A stretch of 64,000 bases of DNA. It comes from Oligoflexia bacterium. Its GTDB lineage: Bacteria; Bdellovibrionota; UBA1018; CAIPTA01. The stretch spans positions 12,038 through 76,037 of the forward strand of contig CAIPTA010000181.1 of NCBI GenBank assembly GCA_903867855.1, given 5' to 3'. The position numbers and the translations under genes were made by a program. The notes beneath the pieces were generated by a model, which worked only from the letters and a program-made list of their open reading frames with translations, did not search any database and was not told the origin of the DNA. Shown piece by piece: positions 2 through 25,298 of this stretch. Positions within the stretch are counted from its first letter, which is position 1. Each line of letters starts with the position of its first letter.

Positions 2-568
2 TTCACCCGCGTGAAAGAGGAATTCGAGCGGCTTCACTTTGCGGAAAATTTGGAAATGCGTGCACTGGGTGGTGAAGGTGGCGTGCTCCAAGAAAAAAAA
101 TCCTTACCTAGCTTCGTGTGCGAGGAAAATGGGAACTTTTTTTGGCGCTGGTTTAGTGATGATCGCGTGGCAGCTTTTGGAAAAAATTTGCCGGCGCTAT
201 TATCGTTCGAGGATACGGAATCCGAGCGAATCGAATTGGGTGAAAGTAAATGGGGCGCGGAATTTGGGCCAGAAGTGAATGTGCTCGATGCGGGATTATT
301 CGATCGTCTACCTGGAAACAAGGGGTGCTATCCCGGCCAAGAAGTAGTGGAAAGATCTTTGAGTGTTGGGCACCCAGCGCGTGCAATGATCCAGGTAAAG
401 GGCGATTGTGAACTCGGCGCTGCACTTTCGGTGGATGGGAAGGATGTAGGCAAGATCACCAGTGTTTCGCCCCGTGGAGTTTATGCCCTAGCAATAGTAC
501 AATGGAAGTATCGCGAAGAAATGAGTTTTGATCATCAGGGAAGGAAGATCGTTCGATGCCACAAGTGA
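2..568 (+). CDS. YgfZ-type folate-binding tRNA-modification protein (GcvT-like fold), 5'-partial at window edge
   Basis: ORF 11..568 is open back to position 2 with no stop. It contains the YgfZ signature K-G-C-Y-x-G-Q-E (KGCYPGQE) with about 80 aa after it, so the N-terminal part lies upstream of the window. Confidence 0.6.
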   Translation, partial: FTRVKEEFERLHFAENLEMRALGGEGGVLQEKKSLPSFVCEENGNFFWRWFSDDRVAAFGKNLPALLSFEDTESERIELGESKWGAEFGPEVNVLDAGLFDRLPGNKGCYPGQEVVERSLSVGHPARAMIQVKGDCELGAALSVDGKDVGKITSVSPRGVYALAIVQWKYREEMSFDHQGRKIVRCHK

Positions 569-855
569 AAGTGAACCACGAGATTGAAGGAAAAAAGAAG
601 GATGTCTACAAGGCAGTAAAGACATACCTAAATGGCCGCGACACTTTAAAAAAATTAGGCGCTGATATCGATTGGGATGATGCAGGCCATTCCGGGGCGA
701 TCGAAGCGAGCAATTTCAAGGGAGAGATTGTAGTGGTGGAAAAATCAGGATCTTCCACCGTTACGATTACGATTGATCTTCCGCTCTTGCTCACGCCATT
801 CAAATCGAAGGTGGAAGAGGAATTAAAAAAACATTTGGGGCGAGTAAAGGCCTGA
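556..855 (+). CDS. small conserved protein, possibly PHA-granule-region (PF09650-like) family
   Basis: 99-aa ORF with ATG at 556. The pattern KKLGADIDWDD...G.IVVVEKSG..V.ITIDLPLLL recalls the polyhydroxyalkanoate-system small-protein family. This is recalled from memory, not searched. Confidence 0.35.
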   Translation: MPQVKVNHEIEGKKKDVYKAVKTYLNGRDTLKKLGADIDWDDAGHSGAIEASNFKGEIVVVEKSGSSTVTITIDLPLLLTPFKSKVEEELKKHLGRVKA

Positions 856-861
856 ATTGGA

Positions 862-1575
862 TTAGGGGCCAGGAACGGGGTTCACGATAAAGTTTACGCC
901 GTAGTTTCCTGGGTTGAAGGCCACTTGATGCTGCTTATCATTCGCGCTCGGCGTATAGAGCATATAGCCCATGATGTGCACTGTGGGGGAAATGCATTTG
1001 CCGGTGGTGGTGGGACAAATTGGTACCCACCAGAGCACTAGGCGAAAAGGGCAAAAGCTACTCGTTGTTGTATTTCCTACTTCGTTTGTGCCGCCGCCAG
1101 CCGCGAAGGGCGTTCCCGACCAGGTATTGCACTGAGCGCCAGTGAGAGTGAATCCCTTGGTAGTGGTGGTGCTTTGGTAGTAAACCGCGCCTGCAGTATT
1201 ATACACATCAAAGGCACCCGTCACCGAGGAAGAGTAATAATTTACGGAGCTATTCGAGGCTACTGAAGGCCCGTTATTCGCAGGATTGGGCGCTTGAGCC
1301 GCGCAATCGGTATAGTTGATTAGGCAAGCGAAGGTAGTGCTATTATTGGCGCCCCATAGCGTTTTCTTCCAGCCTGTTGGGTTTTGTAGAATCGACACCA
1401 CATCTCTACGAATCTGATTGGCTTGAAAGCTAATGCTGGAATTAGAATTTGTTTTGTTTAGGTTATCGATCAACTTGAACGAGGTAAGAATCACCACGGA
1501 GCTTAAGCCAACGGCGATCAGGGATTCCACTAGGGTAAAGCCTAAGCTATTTTTTTTCTTCACGGCTAACCTCAA
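862..1575 (-). CDS. type IV pilin-like protein (paralogue A) with C-terminal Cys motif
   Basis: N-terminus MRLAVKKKNSLG|FTLVESLIAVGL is a class-III prepilin leader with Gly-1/Phe+1/Glu+5 and a hydrophobic helix. C-terminus carries CPFRLVLWWVPICPTTTGKC...GY.LY.P...V.FNPGNYGVN, shared with 2902..3564 and 3670..4587. Confidence 0.75.
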   Translation of the reverse strand: MRLAVKKKNSLGFTLVESLIAVGLSSVVILTSFKLIDNLNKTNSNSSISFQANQIRRDVVSILQNPTGWKKTLWGANNSTTFACLINYTDCAAQAPNPANNGPSVASNSSVNYYSSSVTGAFDVYNTAGAVYYQSTTTTKGFTLTGAQCNTWSGTPFAAGGGTNEVGNTTTSSFCPFRLVLWWVPICPTTTGKCISPTVHIMGYMLYTPSANDKQHQVAFNPGNYGVNFIVNPVPGP

Positions 1576-1576
1576 A

Positions 1577-2905
1577 TCAAAGTATTGGGAATTCCGCTCT
1601 CGGTTCCCGAATCACAAAAAAGGTGAGTAAACAAAAAAGTATGGGCCAAAGCCAAAAGGCCTTGAGTATATATTTGTTTTCTACTCTCAGATAAAGTTCG
1701 CCAAGGCCCCAAATAAAGGCAAAGAGGGGTAAATAGGCCACTCGATCCGCCACGAGGCTTAGCTTCATGAAGGGCACATAGAAGAGGCCGCTGATGGAAA
1801 GGTAGGTAGCAAAGGTAACGCTTAATAACCAATAGCGCTTTGCGAGCCCCCAGATAAAGAGGCCGAGTGAGGCTACGGAAAGTAAGAGAAATAGCCAATT
1901 GAGTCCGGCTAACGTTTGCTTTGTGCGCACGGGGATTTCCGTGAAGCTTAACGATCGCAAGAGATAGTAGCTAAAGGTGCGACCCTCCACTTCCAGTTTT
2001 TCTTTCATGGCTTCAGGGCTCTTGGCGAACTGATCCTGAAGATATCTCTCTTCATGTTTGATGGGGGCTGGGGGAGCTTCGGCTTTCACCGCTATTGGAG
2101 TAGTAAGGATTTTTTTACTTTTACGAATCTTGGCCGTCTTCTTGATGGGCGCTTCTTTCGTTGGGGCCGCCACAAGTTCAGCGGGTTTTGGGGGATTCGT
2201 TAAAAAGTAGCTCGCACTATGCTCCGCTTCCGTGGGGTAATCATAGATTCCATGGGAAACGAGGAAGGCAGAATAGACGCTGAATAGGAGTGCAGGCGAG
2301 GAGTGAAGTAAACTTTTTTTCCAACCCAAAATTTTCGCATTCTTAAAAATTTCCATTGGCGCCAAGAAAAAAGCATAGCTTTTAGTGATCATCATGGCCA
2401 CAAGCAGAGCATTGCTGCGAAGGGGGGAGGCGGGCTTTTCTTCTAAAAAATCGCGCAGCCAAAAAGCGAAGAAAAGCGTGGAAAGCAGGCAGCCGATTTG
2501 GCTAATCCAAGTTACGGCCTCCACGGTGATGGGGCTTAGCCAAAAAAGGCTCGCAGAGAAGAGGGCGGCGGCAAAGGATTTTTTTCGTAAAAAAAGAAAT
2601 AAACAAAATCCATTTGCCCAGTGAAGCAGAATGAGTGCGCTGCGATAGAGAGCGAAATTTAAATGGAAGCCTTGGTATAGCAGCCAGTAAACGCTATGAG
2701 TGAGCGGCCAAGCCTTGGTATTCATTTGGCCGCGATACCAGTATTGCAGTGGGTTCTGGCTACTTTTTATGAAGCTATTGCCGAAGATTAGCGAGTTGTC
2801 ATCTACAAAGGCGCCATAGTGCAGGCTTGGAAAATACAATAGGAACAGAAGCGCGAGAGCGATTCCGGGCACAAAGTATTTTTGTTTAACCAGGGCTTCC
2901 ATCAT
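1577..2905 (-). CDS. polytopic inner-membrane protein, GT-C/PMT-like putative glycosyltransferase
   Basis: 442 aa with many hydrophobic helices and an acidic DD motif in the first loop (AFVDDNSLIF). A Lys/Pro/Ala-rich linker is followed by about 4 more TM helices. The gene abuts pilin paralogue A (1575/1577) and overlaps paralogue B by 4 nt, so it is probably co-transcribed with both. Confidence 0.35.
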   Translation of the reverse strand: MMEALVKQKYFVPGIALALLFLLYFPSLHYGAFVDDNSLIFGNSFIKSSQNPLQYWYRGQMNTKAWPLTHSVYWLLYQGFHLNFALYRSALILLHWANGFCLFLFLRKKSFAAALFSASLFWLSPITVEAVTWISQIGCLLSTLFFAFWLRDFLEEKPASPLRSNALLVAMMITKSYAFFLAPMEIFKNAKILGWKKSLLHSSPALLFSVYSAFLVSHGIYDYPTEAEHSASYFLTNPPKPAELVAAPTKEAPIKKTAKIRKSKKILTTPIAVKAEAPPAPIKHEERYLQDQFAKSPEAMKEKLEVEGRTFSYYLLRSLSFTEIPVRTKQTLAGLNWLFLLLSVASLGLFIWGLAKRYWLLSVTFATYLSISGLFYVPFMKLSLVADRVAYLPLFAFIWGLGELYLRVENKYILKAFWLWPILFCLLTFFVIREPRAEFPIL

Positions 2906-3564
2906 GGGTTTGGTGTGAGCACCAAATTCACTCCGTAGTTATTTGGATTAAAGGGCACTTTCTGGGCGGTATGGGAGGTGGGGGGATTATAAAGAGTATA
3001 GCCGAATACGTGCACCAGTGGATTTACGCAGCTCCCCACTGTGGTGGGGCAAATGGGCACCCACCAGAGCACCAATCGAAAGGGGCATTGCATATTCGGA
3101 GTAACAGTGGAAAAGCCTGTGGCGCCAGCGGTCGAAACCCCATTGGCCCAGTTAGTGCCGCATTGCTGGCCGCTGATATTAAAACCGCGAGCACCATCGG
3201 TACTGATGGGATAATAATTCACTCCAGAAGTATCATACACATCGAAAACGCCAGCCGGAGAGGCACTGGAAAATGTTCCCGATGCGGGGCCGTTCGTTTT
3301 ATAGGCGCTACAATCGGTGCCATTTTTCACGCAGGCAAGCGCGGCATTTCCTTTGATGGTATGTCGCCATGCGGTGAGGTTGGAAAGCAGGATGGAGATT
3401 TGCTTGCGAAAGGCATCAGCCTGAGCGGAGTTCGCGGCAGCAGTGGAGGATTTGTTCATGGTGGTATTGAGCGACATCATGCCGAGTGCTGCAATAGACG
3501 AAAGAGAAACAGCCACCATGAATTCAATGAGGGTAAACCCCAATTTATTGGAAATTAATTTCAT
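2902..3564 (-). CDS. type IV pilin-like protein (paralogue B)
   Basis: MKLISNKLG|FTLIEFMVAVSLSS is a canonical prepilin N-terminus with G|FTLIE. C-terminus carries CPFRLVLWWVPICPTTVGSC...GYTLYNP...VPFNPNNYGVN. Confidence 0.75.
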   Translation of the reverse strand: MKLISNKLGFTLIEFMVAVSLSSIAALGMMSLNTTMNKSSTAAANSAQADAFRKQISILLSNLTAWRHTIKGNAALACVKNGTDCSAYKTNGPASGTFSSASPAGVFDVYDTSGVNYYPISTDGARGFNISGQQCGTNWANGVSTAGATGFSTVTPNMQCPFRLVLWWVPICPTTVGSCVNPLVHVFGYTLYNPPTSHTAQKVPFNPNNYGVNLVLTPNP

Positions 3565-3669
3565 TTCTCCCCACTTTGCCCCAGAGTATAATTATAAACT
3601 AAGTTAAAGGGAATAACCAAGAGCGTGTCCTCGGGGAGACAGTCTGGCTGGAAACCGTGTAAAGTGGCG

Positions 3670-4587
3670 ATGGAGTTTGCCGTGAACAGAAAATACAGAA
3701 AAAATGAATTTGGCTTCGCGCTGCCTATCGTATTGGTGATGATCGCCTTGATCGCCGTGGTTACGGTGTATATGATCAGTCGCTCCACGGCGAGTTCGAA
3801 ACAATCAATTTATACGAATGGAACATTTCAAGGATCGAATATTATTACCCAGGTAACGAACCTAATTCAGGATAGTACCGCTTGGGATCATACCTTATAT
3901 GCCAACGCAGCGATGAGTTGCCTGAAGTTTAGTCCGGGAGTGGATTGCTATGCCGCCTCGACTGCGAACGGCAGCACCTATGTGCAGAATGTTACCTATC
4001 CCACCACAATGACTGGCTCTTTCGTGCTGTACGATCGCTCCGGTAAAATTTTTTATGATTCAACGGCCGCCACGAATGGATTCGACTATACGGGGCAGCC
4101 TTGCCCGTATACCACGTCAAATAGTTATAGCAATTCGTCGAATACAAAAACCTACGGTGATTCCAGCGGACAGTGCCCCTTTCGATTAGTGCTATGGTGG
4201 CAACCTCATTGCACACCAGCCTCTTCTCCCTGCAACTTAAATAATGCCCACCTCGATTATTATACGATTTATGGCTACTTGCTCTTTTCGCCAGTGGGAA
4301 ATAATACGTATAAAGTTCCATTTCGTCCGGAGAACTATAAAATCAGCATTAAAAAATCCACTACGGCAGCGAATGCTAACTATTGTTGTGCGATTGAGTG
4401 TAAGCGCACAACAGCCGATGCGGGCACGGCCTATGTAACCAAAACCATCGTGCAATCAGCAAATTGTTATCCGGGATCCTCGGAAGTGCCTTCCTCGATT
4501 TGTGGAGATGTATTTGCCGCGGATCCAGATGAGTGGGCCTATGATGGGAACGTAGTGACTAATTCTGGCACTTGTGCGGGCGGGTAA
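3670..4587 (+). CDS. pilin-like protein paralogue C (atypical, lacks Glu+5)
   Basis: Reading from the internal ATG at 3670 gives MEFAVNRKYRKNEFG|FALPIVLVMIALIAV: a short basic leader, Gly-Phe, then a hydrophobic helix with Ile at +5. A GTG at 3625 is an alternative start. Shares CPFRLVLWWQPHCTPASSPC...IYGYLLFSP...YKVPFRPENY with paralogues A and B. Confidence 0.55.
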   Translation: MEFAVNRKYRKNEFGFALPIVLVMIALIAVVTVYMISRSTASSKQSIYTNGTFQGSNIITQVTNLIQDSTAWDHTLYANAAMSCLKFSPGVDCYAASTANGSTYVQNVTYPTTMTGSFVLYDRSGKIFYDSTAATNGFDYTGQPCPYTTSNSYSNSSNTKTYGDSSGQCPFRLVLWWQPHCTPASSPCNLNNAHLDYYTIYGYLLFSPVGNNTYKVPFRPENYKISIKKSTTAANANYCCAIECKRTTADAGTAYVTKTIVQSANCYPGSSEVPSSICGDVFAADPDEWAYDGNVVTNSGTCAGG

Positions 4588-4676
4588 AATGACTGGAAAA
4601 CTTGGAATTAGTGCGCGATTATTAACGTCATCATTGATGGCGATGGTTTGCTTTTTAGTGAAGATAGGTTGAATCC

Positions 4677-5642
4677 ATGATTAAAAATATCAGAATTTTG
4701 TTTTTGTTTCTTTTTTCGGTTCAAGCAGGTGCAACGAGCTATGTGGGAATTGGAACGGCGTCTCCGGCGTCATTACTCACGCTTTACACAACGACAAATA
4801 TTCAGGGGCTAGAGATTGATGGAACATCTACCGCAACTAATACGGTGAAAAGCCTTTTTCTTGCGAACGTTACTGCCGGATCTTATAATTCCATCACCCA
4901 AACCGGGGATCAAGGAATAATCTACATGGGGACGACGATAGGTACTCCCAAGGGTTTTTTCATCGCGCCTTGGGCTAGTGCCACCACAGGTCTTCGGCTC
5001 GATACTAATGGCAACGTCGGGATCGGCACGACCTCTACGTACGGAGCTCTAACTGTAGCTAATGGTACAGATCATACGCTTAATGTGCGTGGGGATCCCG
5101 TCTCATTCGGTCTGCCTGCTGGTCTTCTTGGGCCGATTCTTCAAGGCGTAAATAGCGCTCAAACTGTCCAAGAGCCGATCACCTTGGAGGGATCAACAAT
5201 TAACTTGATGGGTGGAAGTGTGGGTATAGGTACCAGTAGCCCCTCTTATGCTTTAGATGTAACAGGCACCATCAGAGCTACAAATCTAATTCTAACTTCT
5301 GATCGCAGAGCAAAGAAAAATATAAGTAGTTTAGATGAAACAGAATCGTTGGAAAAATTGAGCCGATTGAATCCAGTTTCCTTTGAATGGAAAAACTCTG
5401 GCGAGGCTGATCTTGGTATTATCGCGCAGGAGCTTGCGGAGGTTTATCCTGAACTAGTTTTGAAGGATCAACAGGGCGCGCTTTCAATTCGTTCCACTTC
5501 TCTCATTGCTCCGCTCATTGCCTCAGTGAAAAAATTAAAGAGCGACAATGAACTATTGCGAGAAGAAAACGGAAAACAGAAATCGCGCCTCGATGAGTTA
5601 GAGAAAAAATTTAACGCTCTAGCAGCAAAAATAGAAAAGTAA
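4677..5642 (+). CDS. secreted tail-fibre-like (mosaic adhesive trimer-like) protein with C-terminal peptidase S74 intramolecular-chaperone domain
   Basis: Signal peptide MIKNIRILFLFLFSVQAGA. Repeated VGIGT..P..L.V fibre motifs. C-terminal block SDRRAKKNISSLDE...LSRLNPVSFEWK...DLGIIAQELAEVYPELV...SLIAPLIASVKKLKSDNELLREEN matches the auto-cleaving chaperone of phage tail fibres and endosialidases. Confidence 0.8.
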   Translation: MIKNIRILFLFLFSVQAGATSYVGIGTASPASLLTLYTTTNIQGLEIDGTSTATNTVKSLFLANVTAGSYNSITQTGDQGIIYMGTTIGTPKGFFIAPWASATTGLRLDTNGNVGIGTTSTYGALTVANGTDHTLNVRGDPVSFGLPAGLLGPILQGVNSAQTVQEPITLEGSTINLMGGSVGIGTSSPSYALDVTGTIRATNLILTSDRRAKKNISSLDETESLEKLSRLNPVSFEWKNSGEADLGIIAQELAEVYPELVLKDQQGALSIRSTSLIAPLIASVKKLKSDNELLREENGKQKSRLDELEKKFNALAAKIEK

Positions 5643-5646
5643 AACT

Positions 5647-6486
5647 ATGCTTCTTTCCCTGCTTATCACATTACTATCTAGCACTTTTGCTCATGCCACT
5701 GCTTGTGCGACCAGTGGTTTGATGACAGTCGCCTCTGGCGTTAATACTGTTTGCCAAAACAGTGTTTTAGGAACTCCTCAGGGATCATCTCTCGGCACTT
5801 GTGCAGGAACAACAGCTGGAACCACCACTTATTCGGCGGGTACCTACAAAGTATGTGATGGCTCTAATTGGTACGACATGAAGGGGAGTTCCATTGGCTC
5901 TTGTGTGGGAACTACAGCGGGCACATTGTCATACGTCTCAAATGCCTTTCAGTTTTGTGATGGTACTAATTGGTATAGTTTAACCTCTGGTACTGTGACG
6001 ATTAACTTAACCTCTACTTCCTGTGATGGAGTTTATTGTAAATATGTGAGCAGTGGAGATGCTGATGCAAATGGATATTGCATCAGTAATGGGTATGCCT
6101 CCGCTGTTTCTTCTACCTCAGGCGGGAACGGTTGCAACGGCTGTTATTATGTCGATTGGGTGTCCAATGCTTGGAACACTCCATATCACAATTGCAACAG
6201 CTGTAATCAAATGGCTACGGTTACTTGCCAAAGTGGAACTCCAAGTATTCCTTGTGGCGAAGCAATTTACTCCACAGGTGTTGTAAGTAACTATATCGAT
6301 GGAACTTGGGGGTCGATTAATGCGGGCTCTTGTCCGTACCCGAGTATGTATCAATTCCAAAACCTTGGCAGTCAGAGCACGGATCAAGGAGTGAAGCCTT
6401 TAGTCCGTTGTGGATATTGTGGTCCAGGGTCGGTGAACAACCCCTCAGTGACTTGCCTGAATAACTCAAATTGTGTGGCTCATTAA
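5647..6486 (+). CDS. secreted Cys-rich protein with internal duplication
   Basis: Signal peptide MLLSLLITLLSSTFAHA and more than 25 Cys. The segment C.GTTAGT..Y......CDG.NWY occurs twice in tandem. It starts 5 nt after the fibre gene stop. Confidence 0.6.
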   Translation: MLLSLLITLLSSTFAHATACATSGLMTVASGVNTVCQNSVLGTPQGSSLGTCAGTTAGTTTYSAGTYKVCDGSNWYDMKGSSIGSCVGTTAGTLSYVSNAFQFCDGTNWYSLTSGTVTINLTSTSCDGVYCKYVSSGDADANGYCISNGYASAVSSTSGGNGCNGCYYVDWVSNAWNTPYHNCNSCNQMATVTCQSGTPSIPCGEAIYSTGVVSNYIDGTWGSINAGSCPYPSMYQFQNLGSQSTDQGVKPLVRCGYCGPGSVNNPSVTCLNNSNCVAH

Positions 6487-6679
6487 GGGAGCGCTTACTG
6501 TGAAAGCGCGGCTACTTCAGAAACGCCCAGTGTGCCTTCGATCACTACATTCTCATTTGCCTTGGCCTGCGAGGCGAGGGCGATAAATCGGGCGCCGATA
6601 ACTGCTACTCTGATCATGTTTACTCCTGGGTAAAGTGCCGATGCCTGGGTATAGAGCATCGCGTTGCTCGTGGCTATGC

Positions 6680-7519
6680 TTACAATATTTTATGGATAGA
6701 TTTTACTGGCGCTAGCTTCCGCTTCAGCAGCGCAGGCACCGGGCAGAGAAGGATACTCATCCAAACCGCCACGCTAAAATAGAGCGACATCCAAAGAAAT
6801 TCATAGCCCCAATCTTTCACATCGTGAGTGACCATCCAGCGCGTGTTGAGATCTTTTATGCCATCCATAAAGCCTAGAAACTGCTTGCCGCTCGCAATAT
6901 CCGCCTGATGACGACTCATGTACATGGGCACATCTACAGTGGCCATATACATCACATACATCGCGCACCCAATGGCACCGAGGATGATCGCTCTACGAAA
7001 CCAGCCTTGAAAGTGTGAGCGAAGATCAAGAAGAGCCAACACGATCAAGAAATAGCTCACTCCCCACAATGATTCCTCCACGCAGTTGCCGATATAATTT
7101 GTGGTCACCACGGCATACCAAGAGCAAATTTCTGCCACACAGATAAGCGGCACAATCATGCGCGCAATTTTGCTCGTGAAATTTGCCTTACTCTCTTGAG
7201 CGAGAAAGGAAAGGAGCTCCGCCCATTCAGCCACGAAACAAAGTTCTGCGATTGTGGCTACAGAGCGGCCCACGAAAACGGAGGAGAGCCAAGTATCAAA
7301 GAGGCAAATGCGCTGCACATCTGCCCTCGGCAGAAGGGAGCGAAAGGCGCAGCCGAAAACATAGGCGCCAGAAAGGAGGAGGAGTTTTTTTGTGGTGGGA
7401 TCCTTTGGGAGGCTTAGGCGGGCCTTTGTCCAAGCGCTACAATTTAGTGCGCTCACACCTACTAGAAAGAGCCACCAAATGGCCACAGGGTTTGAGAGGG
7501 TAATCCAGGAGAGATTCAT
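6680..7519 (-). CDS. hypothetical polytopic membrane protein
   Basis: 279-aa ORF with multiple hydrophobic segments and no recognisable motif. It overlaps the downstream MNT gene start by 4 nt. Confidence 0.45.
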   Translation of the reverse strand: MNLSWITLSNPVAIWWLFLVGVSALNCSAWTKARLSLPKDPTTKKLLLLSGAYVFGCAFRSLLPRADVQRICLFDTWLSSVFVGRSVATIAELCFVAEWAELLSFLAQESKANFTSKIARMIVPLICVAEICSWYAVVTTNYIGNCVEESLWGVSYFLIVLALLDLRSHFQGWFRRAIILGAIGCAMYVMYMATVDVPMYMSRHQADIASGKQFLGFMDGIKDLNTRWMVTHDVKDWGYEFLWMSLYFSVAVWMSILLCPVPALLKRKLAPVKSIHKIL

Positions 7520-7788
7520 TTGGTGAGCCTATAGAAGCATTTACTAAAGAGCCGGATATGTTCGAGCAGTTCTTTGCTTTCAATTTGGGTATAGATCGAG
7601 AGGTCTATTTTATAGGGTAGGAGTAGATCATCTAGCGCGGATTCTATGGCCAAGAGTTCTGAATTTTTTCTAAAGTTAACTTTGGCTCTAGAACCGTAAA
7701 CCAGAACTTCTTCTACATTCGAAAATGCGCTAAAAACATCTTGAATGCTAGCAATGGTTTTTTCGCTGAGGCCAAACTCACTTTTCAT
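7516..7788 (-). CDS. MNT-type minimal nucleotidyltransferase (HI0073-like), catalytic motif degenerate
   Basis: ..LVYGSRAKVNFRKNSELLAIE.. aligns with the HI0073-type G-S-x(9-11)-D-x-D-L motif, but DLD reads EL: one codon shorter and only one acidic residue retained. Overlaps the HEPN partner by 4 nt. Confidence 0.55.
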   Translation of the reverse strand: MKSEFGLSEKTIASIQDVFSAFSNVEEVLVYGSRAKVNFRKNSELLAIESALDDLLLPYKIDLSIYTQIESKELLEHIRLFSKCFYRLTK

Positions 7789-8015
7789 GTATGTAAAAGG
7801 CTACTTAATTTTTGGGAAAGTTTTTCAAACTGGTCGAGATAGGATCCTACTACCTTTTGGATAATATCCTCTGCCGTTGGGCGATTATAGGTATGGGATG
7901 TTTGATTTCTGCTCTTGATCATTTCCATCCAGCAATCTCCGTCGCTCATTTGCTGAAGAGCTACTTTGAAGTTTTGGAAACGCTGCTGCCAGCGAATTTC
8001 TTGTCTCATGATCAC
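7785..8015 (-). CDS. HEPN / nucleotidyltransferase-substrate-binding (HI0074-like) protein, internally shortened
   Basis: N-terminus IRWQQRFQNFKVAL and C-terminal R-x4-H-x-Y HEPN motif (RNQTSHTY) are both present. At 76 aa the protein is far shorter than the family norm (about 120-140 aa), consistent with an in-frame internal deletion. Confidence 0.5.
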   Translation of the reverse strand: MIMRQEIRWQQRFQNFKVALQQMSDGDCWMEMIKSRNQTSHTYNRPTAEDIIQKVVGSYLDQFEKLSQKLSSLLHT

Positions 8016-13970: not shown

Positions 13971-16475
13971 GTGAGATTTTTCGCCTTTTATTTTGCTGCC
14001 TTTTTTCTAAGTCATTCCGTGGCGTTCGCCGTTGATCTAGGGCCATTATTTAAAAATTGCCAAGAGGCATGGTCTAAACTTAGCACTTCGCAATCTAAGG
14101 ATAGGCAAGCCTTGCTCGATAGGGTGAATCCGTCTACCGACACATTGGATCAACTGGATCGCTTAACTGCTGTAGAAGATATTTTAAAATGGGGCAAAAC
14201 CACGGATGACGAATTGGATTATCTGCGCCTCATTCGTCTCCGCGATTATGTAGATGCACCAAATTATATGGCCGGTGTGGAAATCTATGGCCAGGAAACC
14301 TATCTCGCTTGGCGTGATGCAGATGAATTTTTAAAGAGCATTCCGATTGGAAAATTTGAACCCACTATCGATGTGCTTTCAAAGAATCATCGCTTGGCCA
14401 CATCTGCCTTGTCGAAAACTCTGAAGCGTCTTGATAGTATCATCCCCGATGGTCTGCTGGCGGATAAGGGCGGAGTGATCAAGCGTAGAAGCTCGATCAA
14501 TATTGTGCCGATCTTGGACCCCTTGAAACATCCCTTCACAGATGAGCAGTATGCGGCCATCAAAGCAAACCAATGGCTTCAGGGATTTGTAGAGCTCCCC
14601 ATTCATCAGCCTGGTAAACATTTTGGATATATCTACTATTCGAAACCAGAGGATACACAGCCTGAGCTCGAGGCCTTAATTAAATGGTATGATCTCAATA
14701 AAAATAAAATGGATCCGGTGGAGCTCGCCGCAAAGTTTTCCTATCGTTATACTTCGATTCATCCTTTCATTGATGGGAATGGACGTTCTTCTCGGCTCAT
14801 CATGGATCGTATCCTCGCTGAATATGGATTACCTCCACCCTTATTAAAAGATTCGTGGGAAGATATTGTGCTCGGCGAAGATAAATATGTGCAAGAAGTG
14901 CGCGATGGGATTGATCGCTACTTAACCCTAGCAGAACAAAAAGCGCCAACTTATTATAATAATAAAAGTGGCAACTTAGTTACAACAGGGGTGTTAAAAC
15001 TGTCGGCCGCTAGCGATAGAGTGCTCGCACCACTCAGCGGAGAAACATTTAAGGTAGAAGGCAAAGAACTTTATTTCAGCACTACAGATGGATTTTTCTA
15101 TGATCATTTTGGTGTGCCGTATTTGGTGCACGAAAATCGATTTTATCCAGTGGCCGATCGTAGCTATCGTTTATATGAATTGAATGCTACGGCAAAAATA
15201 GATGGATATACTGCAGGGCTCAGCAAAGGCCATGCCCTACAGCTAAGAGAGAATTTGCGTTTTATCAAAAGCGTTGCGGATAAAAGCGCAGATTTAACGA
15301 CGTTCACGGTGGAGCCGTATTCTTCGATCGCAGCCGCGAATAAAATTGGAGATTTCCAGTTTTTCCCTTGGCAGAAAGATCTTTTTCAAAGCGCGGCCAC
15401 AATTACGGAAACAGATCCAACTAAAATTCTTTCCGTGTTTCGCTTTCAAAAAACCACTTTCGCTGCTGGCGCAAATCCAGAAACGATACTGGCTCAGTAT
15501 GAGTATGTAGATTACCTATATTGGCAAATGCAGCAAGCGGCCAAAAAATATTTTCCTGATCTTGAGGCTACCGTGATGGAGAGTCGTCAAAAGTTGCACC
15601 AAGCGGGAAGAGATTTGCTAGAGCCTTATCGTCAGGCCCGTAATGCACTTCCGTCTGAAGGTGCCCAGCGAGTAAGCAATAACTATCGAGTGAAGCTTTT
15701 CGATGCTTACTTGGAAAATTCTAAGCTCAGTTATAAGAGCTTCGATCGAGCCATGGACGCTATGCCAGACGATTCCATGGTGGTGATGCGTAGTGATATG
15801 CCGATCGTTTCCAAAATTGGCTTCACTTCTATTAGCGATTTTAGGAAGTTGTTCACCAGCCTGCCAAATTCCAAGAAGTTGGGGATTTTCCTCGAAAAAT
15901 TGCAAGCCTTCATGACGGGAGAAGGCAAGCGCCCCCTGCAGCAAGTTATTGCTGGAATTCACGAAAAAATTGAAAATAATGAAGGCCCTTTTAAGTTCTT
16001 GCCGCCATTTTTAGAGAAGATGTATTTTGATATTGAAAAAACCTATAACGATGGCGGTTACAACGCATTTCTAACTGCGCTAGCTAAAGTTCTAGAGAGT
16101 CCCTATGTTCATCGAGGTCTGGGCGACGAGTGGGAGCGTGCCTTCGTAGTGCAGCAATTACATGCTGGAGATGTGGGGAATAAATCTCTTAAATCTTTCA
16201 CAACGAACACAAATTTAATGAGTGGGGTGCCTTTTGTGGATATTCCTGCAAAGGGACAAATCTCCTTTGTGCGAATTCCAAAAACCAAGATCAAGCCTCA
16301 ACTGGGCTCTGATATGTTTACGAATGAATACGAAATATTGGCAACCGATATAGTTGGGCCGCAGAGAATTATTCAAAAGTTTTCTGGAGCGGAATTGGCG
16401 CAGCCAATTACTCCGGTAGAAGCTCTGCCGGATACAGATCCAAATAAACAATTTATGCAGCAGTATTTTAATTGA
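13971..16475 (+). CDS. large secreted Fic (Fido) domain protein
   Basis: Signal peptide ..FFAFYFAAFFLSHSVAFA. The canonical Fic active-site motif H-P-F-x-D-G-N-G-R-x-x-R (HPFIDGNGRSSR) is intact and embedded in an otherwise unrecognised 834-aa protein. No (S/T)xxxE(G/N) inhibitory motif was noticed by eye. Confidence 0.75.
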   Translation: MRFFAFYFAAFFLSHSVAFAVDLGPLFKNCQEAWSKLSTSQSKDRQALLDRVNPSTDTLDQLDRLTAVEDILKWGKTTDDELDYLRLIRLRDYVDAPNYMAGVEIYGQETYLAWRDADEFLKSIPIGKFEPTIDVLSKNHRLATSALSKTLKRLDSIIPDGLLADKGGVIKRRSSINIVPILDPLKHPFTDEQYAAIKANQWLQGFVELPIHQPGKHFGYIYYSKPEDTQPELEALIKWYDLNKNKMDPVELAAKFSYRYTSIHPFIDGNGRSSRLIMDRILAEYGLPPPLLKDSWEDIVLGEDKYVQEVRDGIDRYLTLAEQKAPTYYNNKSGNLVTTGVLKLSAASDRVLAPLSGETFKVEGKELYFSTTDGFFYDHFGVPYLVHENRFYPVADRSYRLYELNATAKIDGYTAGLSKGHALQLRENLRFIKSVADKSADLTTFTVEPYSSIAAANKIGDFQFFPWQKDLFQSAATITETDPTKILSVFRFQKTTFAAGANPETILAQYEYVDYLYWQMQQAAKKYFPDLEATVMESRQKLHQAGRDLLEPYRQARNALPSEGAQRVSNNYRVKLFDAYLENSKLSYKSFDRAMDAMPDDSMVVMRSDMPIVSKIGFTSISDFRKLFTSLPNSKKLGIFLEKLQAFMTGEGKRPLQQVIAGIHEKIENNEGPFKFLPPFLEKMYFDIEKTYNDGGYNAFLTALAKVLESPYVHRGLGDEWERAFVVQQLHAGDVGNKSLKSFTTNTNLMSGVPFVDIPAKGQISFVRIPKTKIKPQLGSDMFTNEYEILATDIVGPQRIIQKFSGAELAQPITPVEALPDTDPNKQFMQQYFN

Positions 16476-24752: not shown

Positions 24753-25298
24753 TTGTGGTATCAAGAATTTATGAAACAGGGTGATTTTTTTCCTATCCAA
24801 CAAAAAGCCTATGGTGGTGAGCTACTGAAAACTCGTCGTGGTCGCATGCATGGGCGCACTCTTTCTACGAAACATTCAATGCACCTTGTGCTCCGCTCTA
24901 CTCGGGCTAAAGGGGCGCTTTCTTTTTTAAGACATCGGATCACAATTGATCGTATTTTGACTAAATTTGCGGCAAAAAATGGAGTAAGGATTTTGTCTCT
25001 GGCCAACGTAGGGAATCACCTGCACCTGGAGATACGGCTCTCTACGCGGCATACTTATCGCGCCTTCATTCGAGCGATCACGGCGGCTATCGCCATGGCG
25101 GTGCAAGGGAAGAATCGCTGGAATAAGATTCAAGAGAAATTTTGGGACTATCGCCCCTTTACCCGCATCGTAGTGGGCTATCGAGCGCTGCTCTCGTTAA
25201 AAGACTATATCGAGATCAATCAGCTAGAGGGACTTGGCGTAGCACGGTCGAAGTCTCGTCTAGCTTTGGGCTGGCGAGTAGTGAGACCGCCAGGGTGA
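24753..25298 (+). mobile_element. RAYT / IS200-like HUH (Y1) tyrosine-transposase gene, apparently solitary
   Basis: HUH motif NHLHLEIRL and a C-terminal KFWDYRPF...DYIEINQL block matching the RFWE...DYIYINP catalytic-Tyr helix of REP-associated tyrosine transposases. A 530-bp non-coding region lies upstream. Confidence 0.55.

Follow-up and report, generated by a model that had tools for sequence, protein, structure and literature searches.

Three pilin-like genes and a shared signature

We have analyzed a 64,000-nucleotide (nt) stretch of DNA, termed here the window, from an Oligoflexia bacterium of the Bdellovibrionota (assembly GCA_903867855.1, contig CAIPTA010000181.1). Close to its left end lie three genes encoding type IV pilin-like proteins, which we call paralogs A, B and C. 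An earlier note on this sequence had drawn attention to a Cys-containing motif common to the three proteins, and it is found in the three open reading frames (ORFs) at the following positions.

862–1563, minus strand: paralog A, type IV pilin-like, 233 amino acids (aa) from the GTG start at 1563 used by public gene callers (a TTG start at 1575 would give 237 aa; ORF listing 862–1575); leader VKKKNSLG, then FTLVE; Glu+5; six Cys; no C-terminal extension
949–1053, minus strand: signature hairpin segment of A, CPFRLVLWWVPICPTTTGKCISPTVHIMGYMLYTP (short form CPFRLVLWWVPIC...C...GYMLYTP), placed by alignment to the model of B
901–918, minus strand: tail FNPGNY of A
2902–3564, minus strand: paralog B, type IV pilin-like, 220 aa; leader MKLISNKLG, then FTLIE; Glu+5; six Cys; TATAAT and GGGGAG upstream
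2983–3087, minus strand: signature hairpin segment of B, residues 160–194, CPFRLVLWWVPICPTTVGSCVNPLVHVFGYTLYNP
2935–2952, minus strand: tail FNPNNY of B
3670–4587, plus strand: paralog C, pilin-like, 305 aa from the ATG start at 3670 used by public gene callers (ORF listing 3625–4587); Gly, then FALPI, without Glu+5; the same module followed by a tail of about 75 aa with six more Cys
4174–4293, plus strand: signature hairpin segment of C, CPFRLVLWWQPHCTPASSPCNLNNAHLDYYTIYGYLLFSP (short form CPFRLVLWWQPHC...C...GYLLFSP)
4321–4338, plus strand: tail FRPENY of C

Genes B and C are divergently transcribed. All three proteins contain CPFRLVLWWxPxC with a second Cys six residues on, followed by GYxL[YF]xP and F[NR]PxNY; the hairpin segment of C has a five-residue insertion ahead of its second strand. 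The tail had been described as VPFNPxNYGVN, and this holds exactly for B alone, A having VAFNPGNYGVN and C having VPFRPENYKIS.

A and B are 43% identical over 230 aa (BLASTP, E = 9e-56), and B and C 33% identical over 223 aa (E = 4e-30). This is genuine similarity, far above chance, and it spans the whole proteins and not the C-terminus alone. Six Cys residues are invariant among the three (78, 85, 135, 160, 172 and 179 in the numbering of B, which is used throughout). The motif segment (residues 160–194) is the best conserved, with identities of 74, 49 and 51% for the pairs A–B, B–C and A–C. The loop C135–C160 that directly precedes it is the most variable (20, 22 and 17%, in the same order), and the other segments lie at 25–50%.

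A family with a conserved N-terminal module

We made an exhaustive hidden Markov model (HMM) search of 1.84 billion cluster representatives. This gave 978 matches at E ≤ 1e-3, 308 at ≤ 1e-10 and nine at ≤ 1e-30, and the family comprises at least 308 clusters at 50% identity. The near-orphan status that a word-indexed search had suggested for B, where it returned itself and two orthologs, was overturned by this search. Existing annotations label the proteins 'prepilin-type N-terminal cleavage/methylation domain-containing protein' or 'PulG', and one member (P0012) is named 'pseudopilin PulG' by JGI. The family lies clearly within the known kind of type IV pilin-like, modular pilins, and has so far been named only generically.

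The family signature is C-P-[FL]-R-x2-L-x-W-x3-C-x(3-8)-C. It lies within the consensus GND-x-C-P-F-R-x-x-L-x-W-x3-C-x(3-8)-C-x-N-P-x-V, with F-N-P-x-N-Y further on. Conservation is complete, or at least 90%, at W66, C78, C85, G127, G132, C135, C160, P161, C172, C179 and P182. The motif originally flagged in A, B and C is thus the local spelling of a family-wide signature that is the most conserved element of the family. The clade closest to A and B (P0005–P0009, L036 and L037) has eight Cys in place of six, a further pair lying within the variable region (as in GSACAHGAASCHGGFDVY).

A single module of about 200 aa extends from the signal peptide to the FNPxNY tail in A, B and C and across the whole family. 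The best 150 matches mostly span profile positions of about 5–220, most of them starting at positions 1–20, and in 141 of the 151 family proteins the match runs on to position 200 or beyond, the C-terminal end of the profile. The body and the motif have thus been inherited together. Variation is found on the other side of the motif: 112 of the 141 members with a matched module end have at least 50 aa after the module; the extension is of 100 aa or more in 83 of them and attains 860 aa in the longest case. When the 91 members of 300 aa or more were scanned with Pfam, the domains identified were Peptidase_S74 (ten cases), Fibrinogen_C (three), H_lectin, Gly_rich_2, Big_9 and Cadherin_4 (two each), and RCC1 and Shufflon_N (one each). 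The conserved part is therefore the whole N-terminal pilin-like module, and the exchanged parts are the domains that follow the motif. The earlier note had proposed the reverse, in which variable pilin bodies with exchangeable heads have been joined to a conserved C-terminal module. What stands of that proposal is the existence of a distinct pilin subfamily and of its member lacking Glu5; its assignment of the exchangeable part does not.

The proteins are related to type IV pilins through the N-terminal helix

A, B and C each carry a class III prepilin signal, consisting of a short basic leader, a Gly and a hydrophobic helix. Pfam and NCBIfam recognize only the N-terminal prepilin motif in A and B. 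B scores 26.5 bits with N_methyl (PF07963) and 23 bits with TIGR02532, above the cut-off of 16.3, while A scores 20.9 bits with N_methyl, just below the cut-off of 21.2. C has no match in either database, and its signal was read directly in the sequence as KNEFG followed by FALPIVLVMIALIAVV. The absence of Glu+5 from C, pointed out previously, is seen also in its orthologs. Family-wide, Glu+5 is found in 103 of the 129 members with a recognizable N-terminus; the cleavage and methylation motif, Gly followed by F-[ST]-L-[IV]-E, is kept in 80%, with some 20% lacking Glu+5.

The family as such is absent from Pfam and NCBIfam, and among solved structures in the PDB its similarity is limited to the N-terminal helix. 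Compared with all PDB chains, the family profile matches α1 alone (profile positions 5–83), in geopilin (E = 4e-8), TcpA, the CFA/III pilin and PilA or PilE of several species. No sequence match to the family head was found in that search among the heads and D-regions of solved pilins, and Foldseek found no match for the head. The suggestion that the motif is the D-region of the PilA of Myxococcales was rejected, the match to Myxococcus xanthus PilA (8tj2) being confined to residues 1–43 with E = 0.03. No score with the NCBIfam models for canonical minor pilins and pseudopilins exceeded a curated cut-off. The best were 22.5 bits with PRK10557 (cut-off 120) and 20.8 bits with PilV (cut-off 52.2), and the matches lie nearly all within the N-terminal 50 or so residues, except that with PilV in A, which extends to residue 102. 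These results bear out the view that the proteins are pilin-like and that their Cys-rich signature marks a distinct subfamily, separate from the D-region of any solved pilin family.

Predicted structure and the cysteine residues

The structure of B was modeled with AlphaFold2 using 150 family sequences (mean pLDDT 87.2, pTM 0.79). In the model a helix of 50 residues (12–61) is followed by two short helices within residues 63–81 that hold C78, with C85 just beyond, and then by a poorly structured stretch rich in Ser, Thr, Gly and Asn. Strands are predicted at 116–118, 162–171 (FRLVLWWVPI), 183–192 (LVHVFGYTLY) and 212–216. The motif forms a central β-hairpin in this model, lying beside the N-terminal helix, with C160 just before its first strand and C172 and C179 in the turn C172–P182.

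Disulfide stabilization is plausible because the six Cys are near-invariant, and they would plausibly pair as 78–85, 135–160 and 172–179 to make three disulfides. The patterns of Cys co-loss over 103 full-length members were too sparse to assign pairs.

Distribution and age of the paralogs

We scanned one genome for each of 185,579 species with a degenerate DNA pattern for GNDxCP[LF]RxxLxW. The pattern matched 27 loci, of which the family HMM confirmed 18. All 18 are from metagenome-assembled genomes (MAGs); 16 are named Bdellovibrionota (MAGs of Pseudobdellovibrionaceae, Bdellovibrionaceae, Bdellovibrionales, Bdellovibrio or Pseudobdellovibrio) and two are unclassified 'bacterium'. The other nine loci, from other taxa, are non-members, and about nine are expected by chance for a 37-bit pattern in 2 × 596 Gb. 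So far the family has been found only in the Bdellovibrionota; the pattern covers about 20% of members, so this taxonomic picture is a sample and not a census. The peptide VLWW[VQ]P[IH]C, specific to the window, had no match in the species genomes.

Tandem sets of two or three paralogs are common, with three each in L023, L029, L030, L031 and L034. Sets orthologous to that of the window occur in three further lineages (L006, L036 and L037), in shuffled gene order and each with a homolog, at 36–41% identity, of the membrane protein encoded between A and B that is discussed below. Locus L006 contains, in this order, the homolog (36% identity), a B-like and an A-like gene, and a C-like gene encoding the same Cys-rich tail without Glu5. 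The order differs in the other two loci. Locus L036 has two pilins with Glu5, a C-like gene whose product has the Cys-rich tail and lacks Glu5, and the membrane protein homolog. L037, on a shorter contig, has one pilin with Glu5 and a C-like gene without it that is cut by the contig end before the tail. Orthologs of C (P0004 in the family searches) that share its tail and lack Glu+5 are those of L006 (288 aa) and L036 (280 aa), together with P0011 and P0013.

In a neighbor-joining tree the C-like proteins lacking Glu5 form their own clade, and A and B each pair with an ortholog from another metagenome, that of A (P0003) being near-identical. From the orthologous sets and the tree, A, B and C are old paralogs, neither recent duplicates nor specific to one strain. 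The possibility, raised at the outset, that they were recent duplicates confined to this strain fails in the face of orthologous sets in three other lineages and hundreds of family clusters.

A putative GT-C enzyme encoded between A and B

The gene between those for A and B is the following.

1577–2905, minus strand: 442-aa polytopic membrane protein, putative homolog of GT-C type (PMT_2/TMTC-like) without TPR

The start of this gene and the stop of B share 4 nt (ATGA), and its end is separated from the GTG of A by 13 nt. On the strength of this overlap and short gap we read B, the membrane protein gene and A as a single predicted operon.

The protein has no Pfam match even at E = 10. Its more distant homologs are TPR proteins with PF13231 (PMT_2) (E = 1.6e-9 to 6.5e-4; 5.8 billion sequences), one of which is named 'protein O-mannosyl-transferase'. 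When it is aligned over its whole length with the PMT_2-bearing homologs, D35–D36 (FVDDNS), P125, V128, E129 and W133 (PxxVExVxW) and K175 are invariant. The pair D35–D36 corresponds to the acidic DD or DxD motif that GT-C enzymes have in the first extracytoplasmic loop. The aligned region stops with the membrane domain, and the TPR region is missing both from this protein and from its three close homologs. An AlphaFold model (pLDDT 74.8, pTM 0.78) is all-helical, with 21 helices of at least four residues. Foldseek ranks ArnT first (E = 9.8e-3, probability 1.0), and STT3, PglB, Pmt4 and PimE also rank high, mixed with unrelated transporters; none is below 1e-3, and the TM scores are 0.3–0.4. 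We read the protein as a probable divergent GT-C glycosyltransferase on the basis of these comparisons. Residues 220–283 or so form a Lys-, Ala- and Pro-rich insert of about 65 aa with pLDDT 42–49, which is shorter or missing in the three close homologs and absent from the TPR-bearing ones.

The most economical interpretation is that the enzyme would O-glycosylate the A, B and C pilins in the periplasm, because its three close homologs all adjoin pilins of the family, and because Ser and Thr make up 20–22% of the A, B and C heads. There is precedent in group IV Pseudomonas aeruginosa, where TfpW is encoded next to pilA, has a DDX motif and modifies Ser or Thr (10.1101/2020.04.19.049825).

An S74 fiber gene downstream of C

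On the other side of the cluster, C is followed by a gene for a fiber protein.

4677–5642, plus strand: 321-aa secreted fiber protein with a C-terminal Peptidase_S74 domain (Pfam PF13884, E = 2.4e-16, residues 208–262)

The sequence SDRRAK (in TSDRRAKK) fits the SDxxxK motif of the S74 intramolecular chaperone domain. Among PDB structures the protein matches the MyRF ICA domain (7dc3, 1.2e-9) and a phage tail fiber (8jov), with a weak match to 8ojn (E = 0.082) in the capping-loop region. We regard it as a putative short adhesin resembling the MAT (mosaic adhesive trimer) fibers of Bdellovibrio bacteriovorus.

The same fiber recurs behind the pilin module in other members of the family. Residues 23–319 align with P0095 (334–657 of 680) and P0014 (328–617 of 622), and the mature part aligns in two pieces with P0020. 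The S74 fiber is thus fused to the module in P0095, P0014 and P0020, and is encoded by an adjacent gene in the window and in L006, where it is divergent to the pilin cluster. This Rosetta-stone pattern suggests a functional link between the pilin module and the fiber.

The next gene (5647–6486, plus strand) starts 4 nt past the fiber gene and is probably co-transcribed with it and with C. It encodes a secreted protein of 279 aa with 20 Cys and a duplicated motif G[TS]C[AV]GTTAGT..Y...[YF][KQ][VF]CDG[ST]NWY, which has no Pfam or NCBIfam match. A relationship to the tail of C or to the family was considered and rejected, there being no BLAST match.

Genomic surroundings

An all-against-all search of the neighbors at 20 family loci found no recurrent partner besides the pilin paralogs, except for one pair shared by L022, L023 and L030, which are loci of Bdellovibrionota MAGs. 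The GT-C and S74 genes are therefore features of the clade with CPFRLVLWW only. In the exceptional pair the pilin cluster is followed by genes for a pentapeptide-repeat-like protein and a polytopic membrane protein (L022 4571–6474, L023 5797–7619 and L030 4016–5669), and in L037 a PF05090 (HTTM) gene (4804–5700) lies just upstream of the GT-C gene. The membrane proteins of these four loci are possibly accessory enzymes of another type, associated with the family in addition to the GT-C homolog.

The rest of the window encodes ClpP and ClpX, LeuRS, an H+-PPase, a SNF2 helicase, a Fic protein, a photolyase, PdxS and PdxT, and RPE65. A scan of positions 500–7000 for σ70 promoters and terminators gave fewer sites than in shuffled controls. 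Beyond the Cys-rich protein lie a gene for a polytopic membrane protein of 279 aa with no family match even at E = 10 (6680–7519, minus strand), and two small overlapping ORFs (7516–8015, minus strand) with NTase_sub_bind and a faint Polbeta match, resembling a toxin–antitoxin pair of HepT/MntA type. The Fic protein (834 aa with a Fic/DOC domain; 13971–16475, plus strand) and an IS200-like Y1 transposase (24753–25298, plus strand) are possible effector or mobile markers in an otherwise housekeeping region. A complete mevalonate-pathway set (HMG-CoA reductase, MVD-like protein and GHMP kinases) is encoded on the same contig, just outside the window at its left end.

A model for the function of the pilin set

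We favor, with moderate confidence, the interpretation that A, B and C represent an undescribed type IV pilin-like family, and that they are glycosylated minor or tip pilins which together present adhesins. In this model the three proteins would be cleaved by a prepilin peptidase encoded elsewhere and built at low abundance into a type IV filament, where they would prime assembly or form the tip. A and B, which have Glu+5, would sit below, and C, lacking Glu5 and bearing its Cys-rich tail, would cap the tip in the manner of subunits of GspK or PilX type. Three disulfides would staple a head otherwise poor in secondary structure, with the hypervariable C135–C160 loop exposed at the surface, and the co-transcribed GT-C enzyme would O-glycosylate the Ser/Thr-rich heads in the periplasm, in the way that TfpW modifies the group IV pilin of P. 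aeruginosa. Across the family the module would serve as a carrier for C-terminal adhesive domains, most likely for contact with prey or with surfaces.

A number of observations weigh against this interpretation. The pilin cluster stands as an orphan: the 64-kb window contains no prepilin peptidase and no assembly gene for a pilus, Tad or type II secretion system (T2SS), and the ±4-kb flanks of related loci show no recurring neighbor able to supply assembly or peptidase functions. Canonical sets of minor pilins have four or five members together with PilY1, and not three. The GT-C assignment depends on remote homology and weak fold scores, with no Foldseek E value below 1e-3; a TPR domain such as TfpW and the protein's own homologs possess is missing from it; and its linkage to the pilins is confined to the CPFRLVLWW clade, the other family loci being without it.

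A and B, or one of them, could instead be major subunits of a dedicated pilus, in which glycosylation by the GT-C enzyme would mask the fiber, for example against phages, and C would be a single minor or tip subunit. In P. aeruginosa both tfpW and tfpO lie directly downstream of the major pilin gene (10.1101/2020.04.19.049825), and a pilin as large as about 200 aa can serve as a major subunit, as in M. xanthus (PMC11046646). A and B each consist of the bare module, with Glu+5 and a short leader, and B has a TATAAT box and a strong ribosome-binding site. Set against this are the occurrence in four lineages of two similar paralogs with Glu5 and one without it at each locus, the bulky extensions on most family members, which would be hard to fit into the body of a filament, and the lack of assembly genes nearby. 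We consider this explanation unlikely. A lower probability attaches to the proteins being pseudopilins of a T2SS-like or other non-surface type 4 filament, where the trio would mirror GspI, GspJ and GspK. That trio includes one member lacking Glu5. The resemblance of the present trio to it (a topic discussed in PMC8179133) is accompanied by weak N-terminal NCBIfam matches to GspH and GspI and by the JGI name of P0012. The GspH and GspI matches, however, score under the curated cut-offs and extend over the N-terminal helix alone, no T2SS genes lie nearby, and the fusions to lectin, fibrinogen, Ig, cadherin and S74 domains argue for exposure outside the cell, so that we find a pseudopilin role very doubtful.

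The proteins might not assemble at all. They could be bitopic proteins of the envelope in which a pilin-like anchor holds a Cys-rich domain, for example as a periplasmic or surface receptor. This would accommodate a head with no detectable structural relative among solved pilins, loci orphaned from assembly genes, and the fifth or so of members without Glu+5. Conservation of the G/F-[ST]-L-[IV]-E motif in 80% of members is nevertheless hard to explain without prepilin processing and assembly, and we attach very little weight to this explanation. Least weight of all goes to the original proposal of a disulfide-stabilized C-terminal module on otherwise unrelated, exchangeable pilin bodies or heads. 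The high conservation of the hairpin segment and the variability of the loop before it (about 20% identity) would fit such an arrangement. It conflicts with the end-to-end alignment of A, B and C, with the extent of the profile matches at both ends of the module, and with the variable domains being appended after the motif and not before it.

Prey recognition and the MAT fibers

A more ambitious extension of the favored model, which we regard as speculative and rather improbable, concerns the MAT fibers. The family could be a presentation device for the MAT/S74 fibers of predatory Bdellovibrionota, giving type IV pilus tips with interchangeable prey receptors resembling tail fibers. The fiber would be fused behind the module in some genomes, while in the window and L006 a separate secreted fiber would dock onto a glycosylated tip complex of A, B and C. 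The surface anchor of the MAT fibers of B. bacteriovorus was left open when they were described, and an interplay with type IV pili was raised (Caulton et al. 2024, PMC10769870); a 2025 review (PMC12428579) describes no link between MAT proteins and pilins. If true, this extension would answer the question of Caulton et al. (2024) as to the anchor and the interplay.

The family also adds a pilin head domain without a solved relative, and it provides another, independent instance, the second, of a GT-C enzyme (here putative) within a pilin operon. Bdellovibrio-like predators need type IV pili to enter their prey. The family is so far restricted to this lineage and contains hundreds of clusters at 50% identity, with lectin, fibrinogen, Ig, cadherin and S74 payloads and a GT-C partner in one clade; on this basis it is a testable candidate for the recognition layer of predatory pili, and could link prey recognition to the anchoring of MAT fibers. 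If the proteins are ordinary minor pilins, a useful definition of the family and a correction of its annotation would still result.

Comparison with known systems

With the type IV pilins (N_methyl, TIGR02532) and minor pilins A, B and C share a class III signal with Gly-1 and Phe+1, Glu+5 in A and B, a predicted long N-terminal helix and small β-sheet head with putative Cys pairs, and one paralog lacking Glu5, like GspK or PilX-type subunits. They differ in that the family head is unmatched in Pfam, NCBIfam and solved pilins beyond the helix, and in having six conserved Cys in place of the usual single D-region pair. Minor-pilin sets differ also in composition and setting, that of the window being a set of three close to which neither PilY1 nor assembly genes are encoded.

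The GT-C homolog resembles TfpW of P. aeruginosa in being a GT-C type membrane protein with a DD(x) motif, whose gene is predicted to be co-transcribed with those of pilins having Ser/Thr-rich heads. TfpW is a GT-C arabinosyltransferase and has TPR, whereas the putative enzyme of the window is related to PMT_2/TMTC proteins, is not demonstrably related to TfpW, and lacks TPR. No sugar-precursor genes were seen near the gene in the window, and glycosylation here is a prediction.

The fiber protein has in common with the MAT fibers of B. bacteriovorus a signal peptide, capping-loop repeats of GIGT type, a C-terminal S74 domain with SDxxxK, and its lineage. The 21 MAT proteins of B. bacteriovorus share a conserved, β-rich N-terminal domain of about 130 aa, to which the one link is the weak 8ojn match of the fiber protein in its capping-loop region. 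The fiber protein is much shorter, at 321 aa against about 1000 aa, and it is associated with pilins, by adjacent genes in the window and L006 and by fusion elsewhere, a link not described for the MAT proteins.

The family as a whole has a parallel in the modular pilins, exemplified by PilB and PilC of Streptococcus sanguinis, among whose frequent architectures a pilin joined to IPR030392 (S74) has already been listed (Raynaud et al. 2021, PMC8179133). In both, an N-terminal pilin module is followed by a C-terminal functional or adhesive module, with S74, lectin, fibrinogen, Ig and cadherin payloads in the present family. Here A and B carry no payload and the six-Cys tail of C, of about 75 aa, matches no Pfam domain, and the carrier module, of about 200 aa, belongs to a separate Cys-rich family that has so far been found in the Bdellovibrionota alone.

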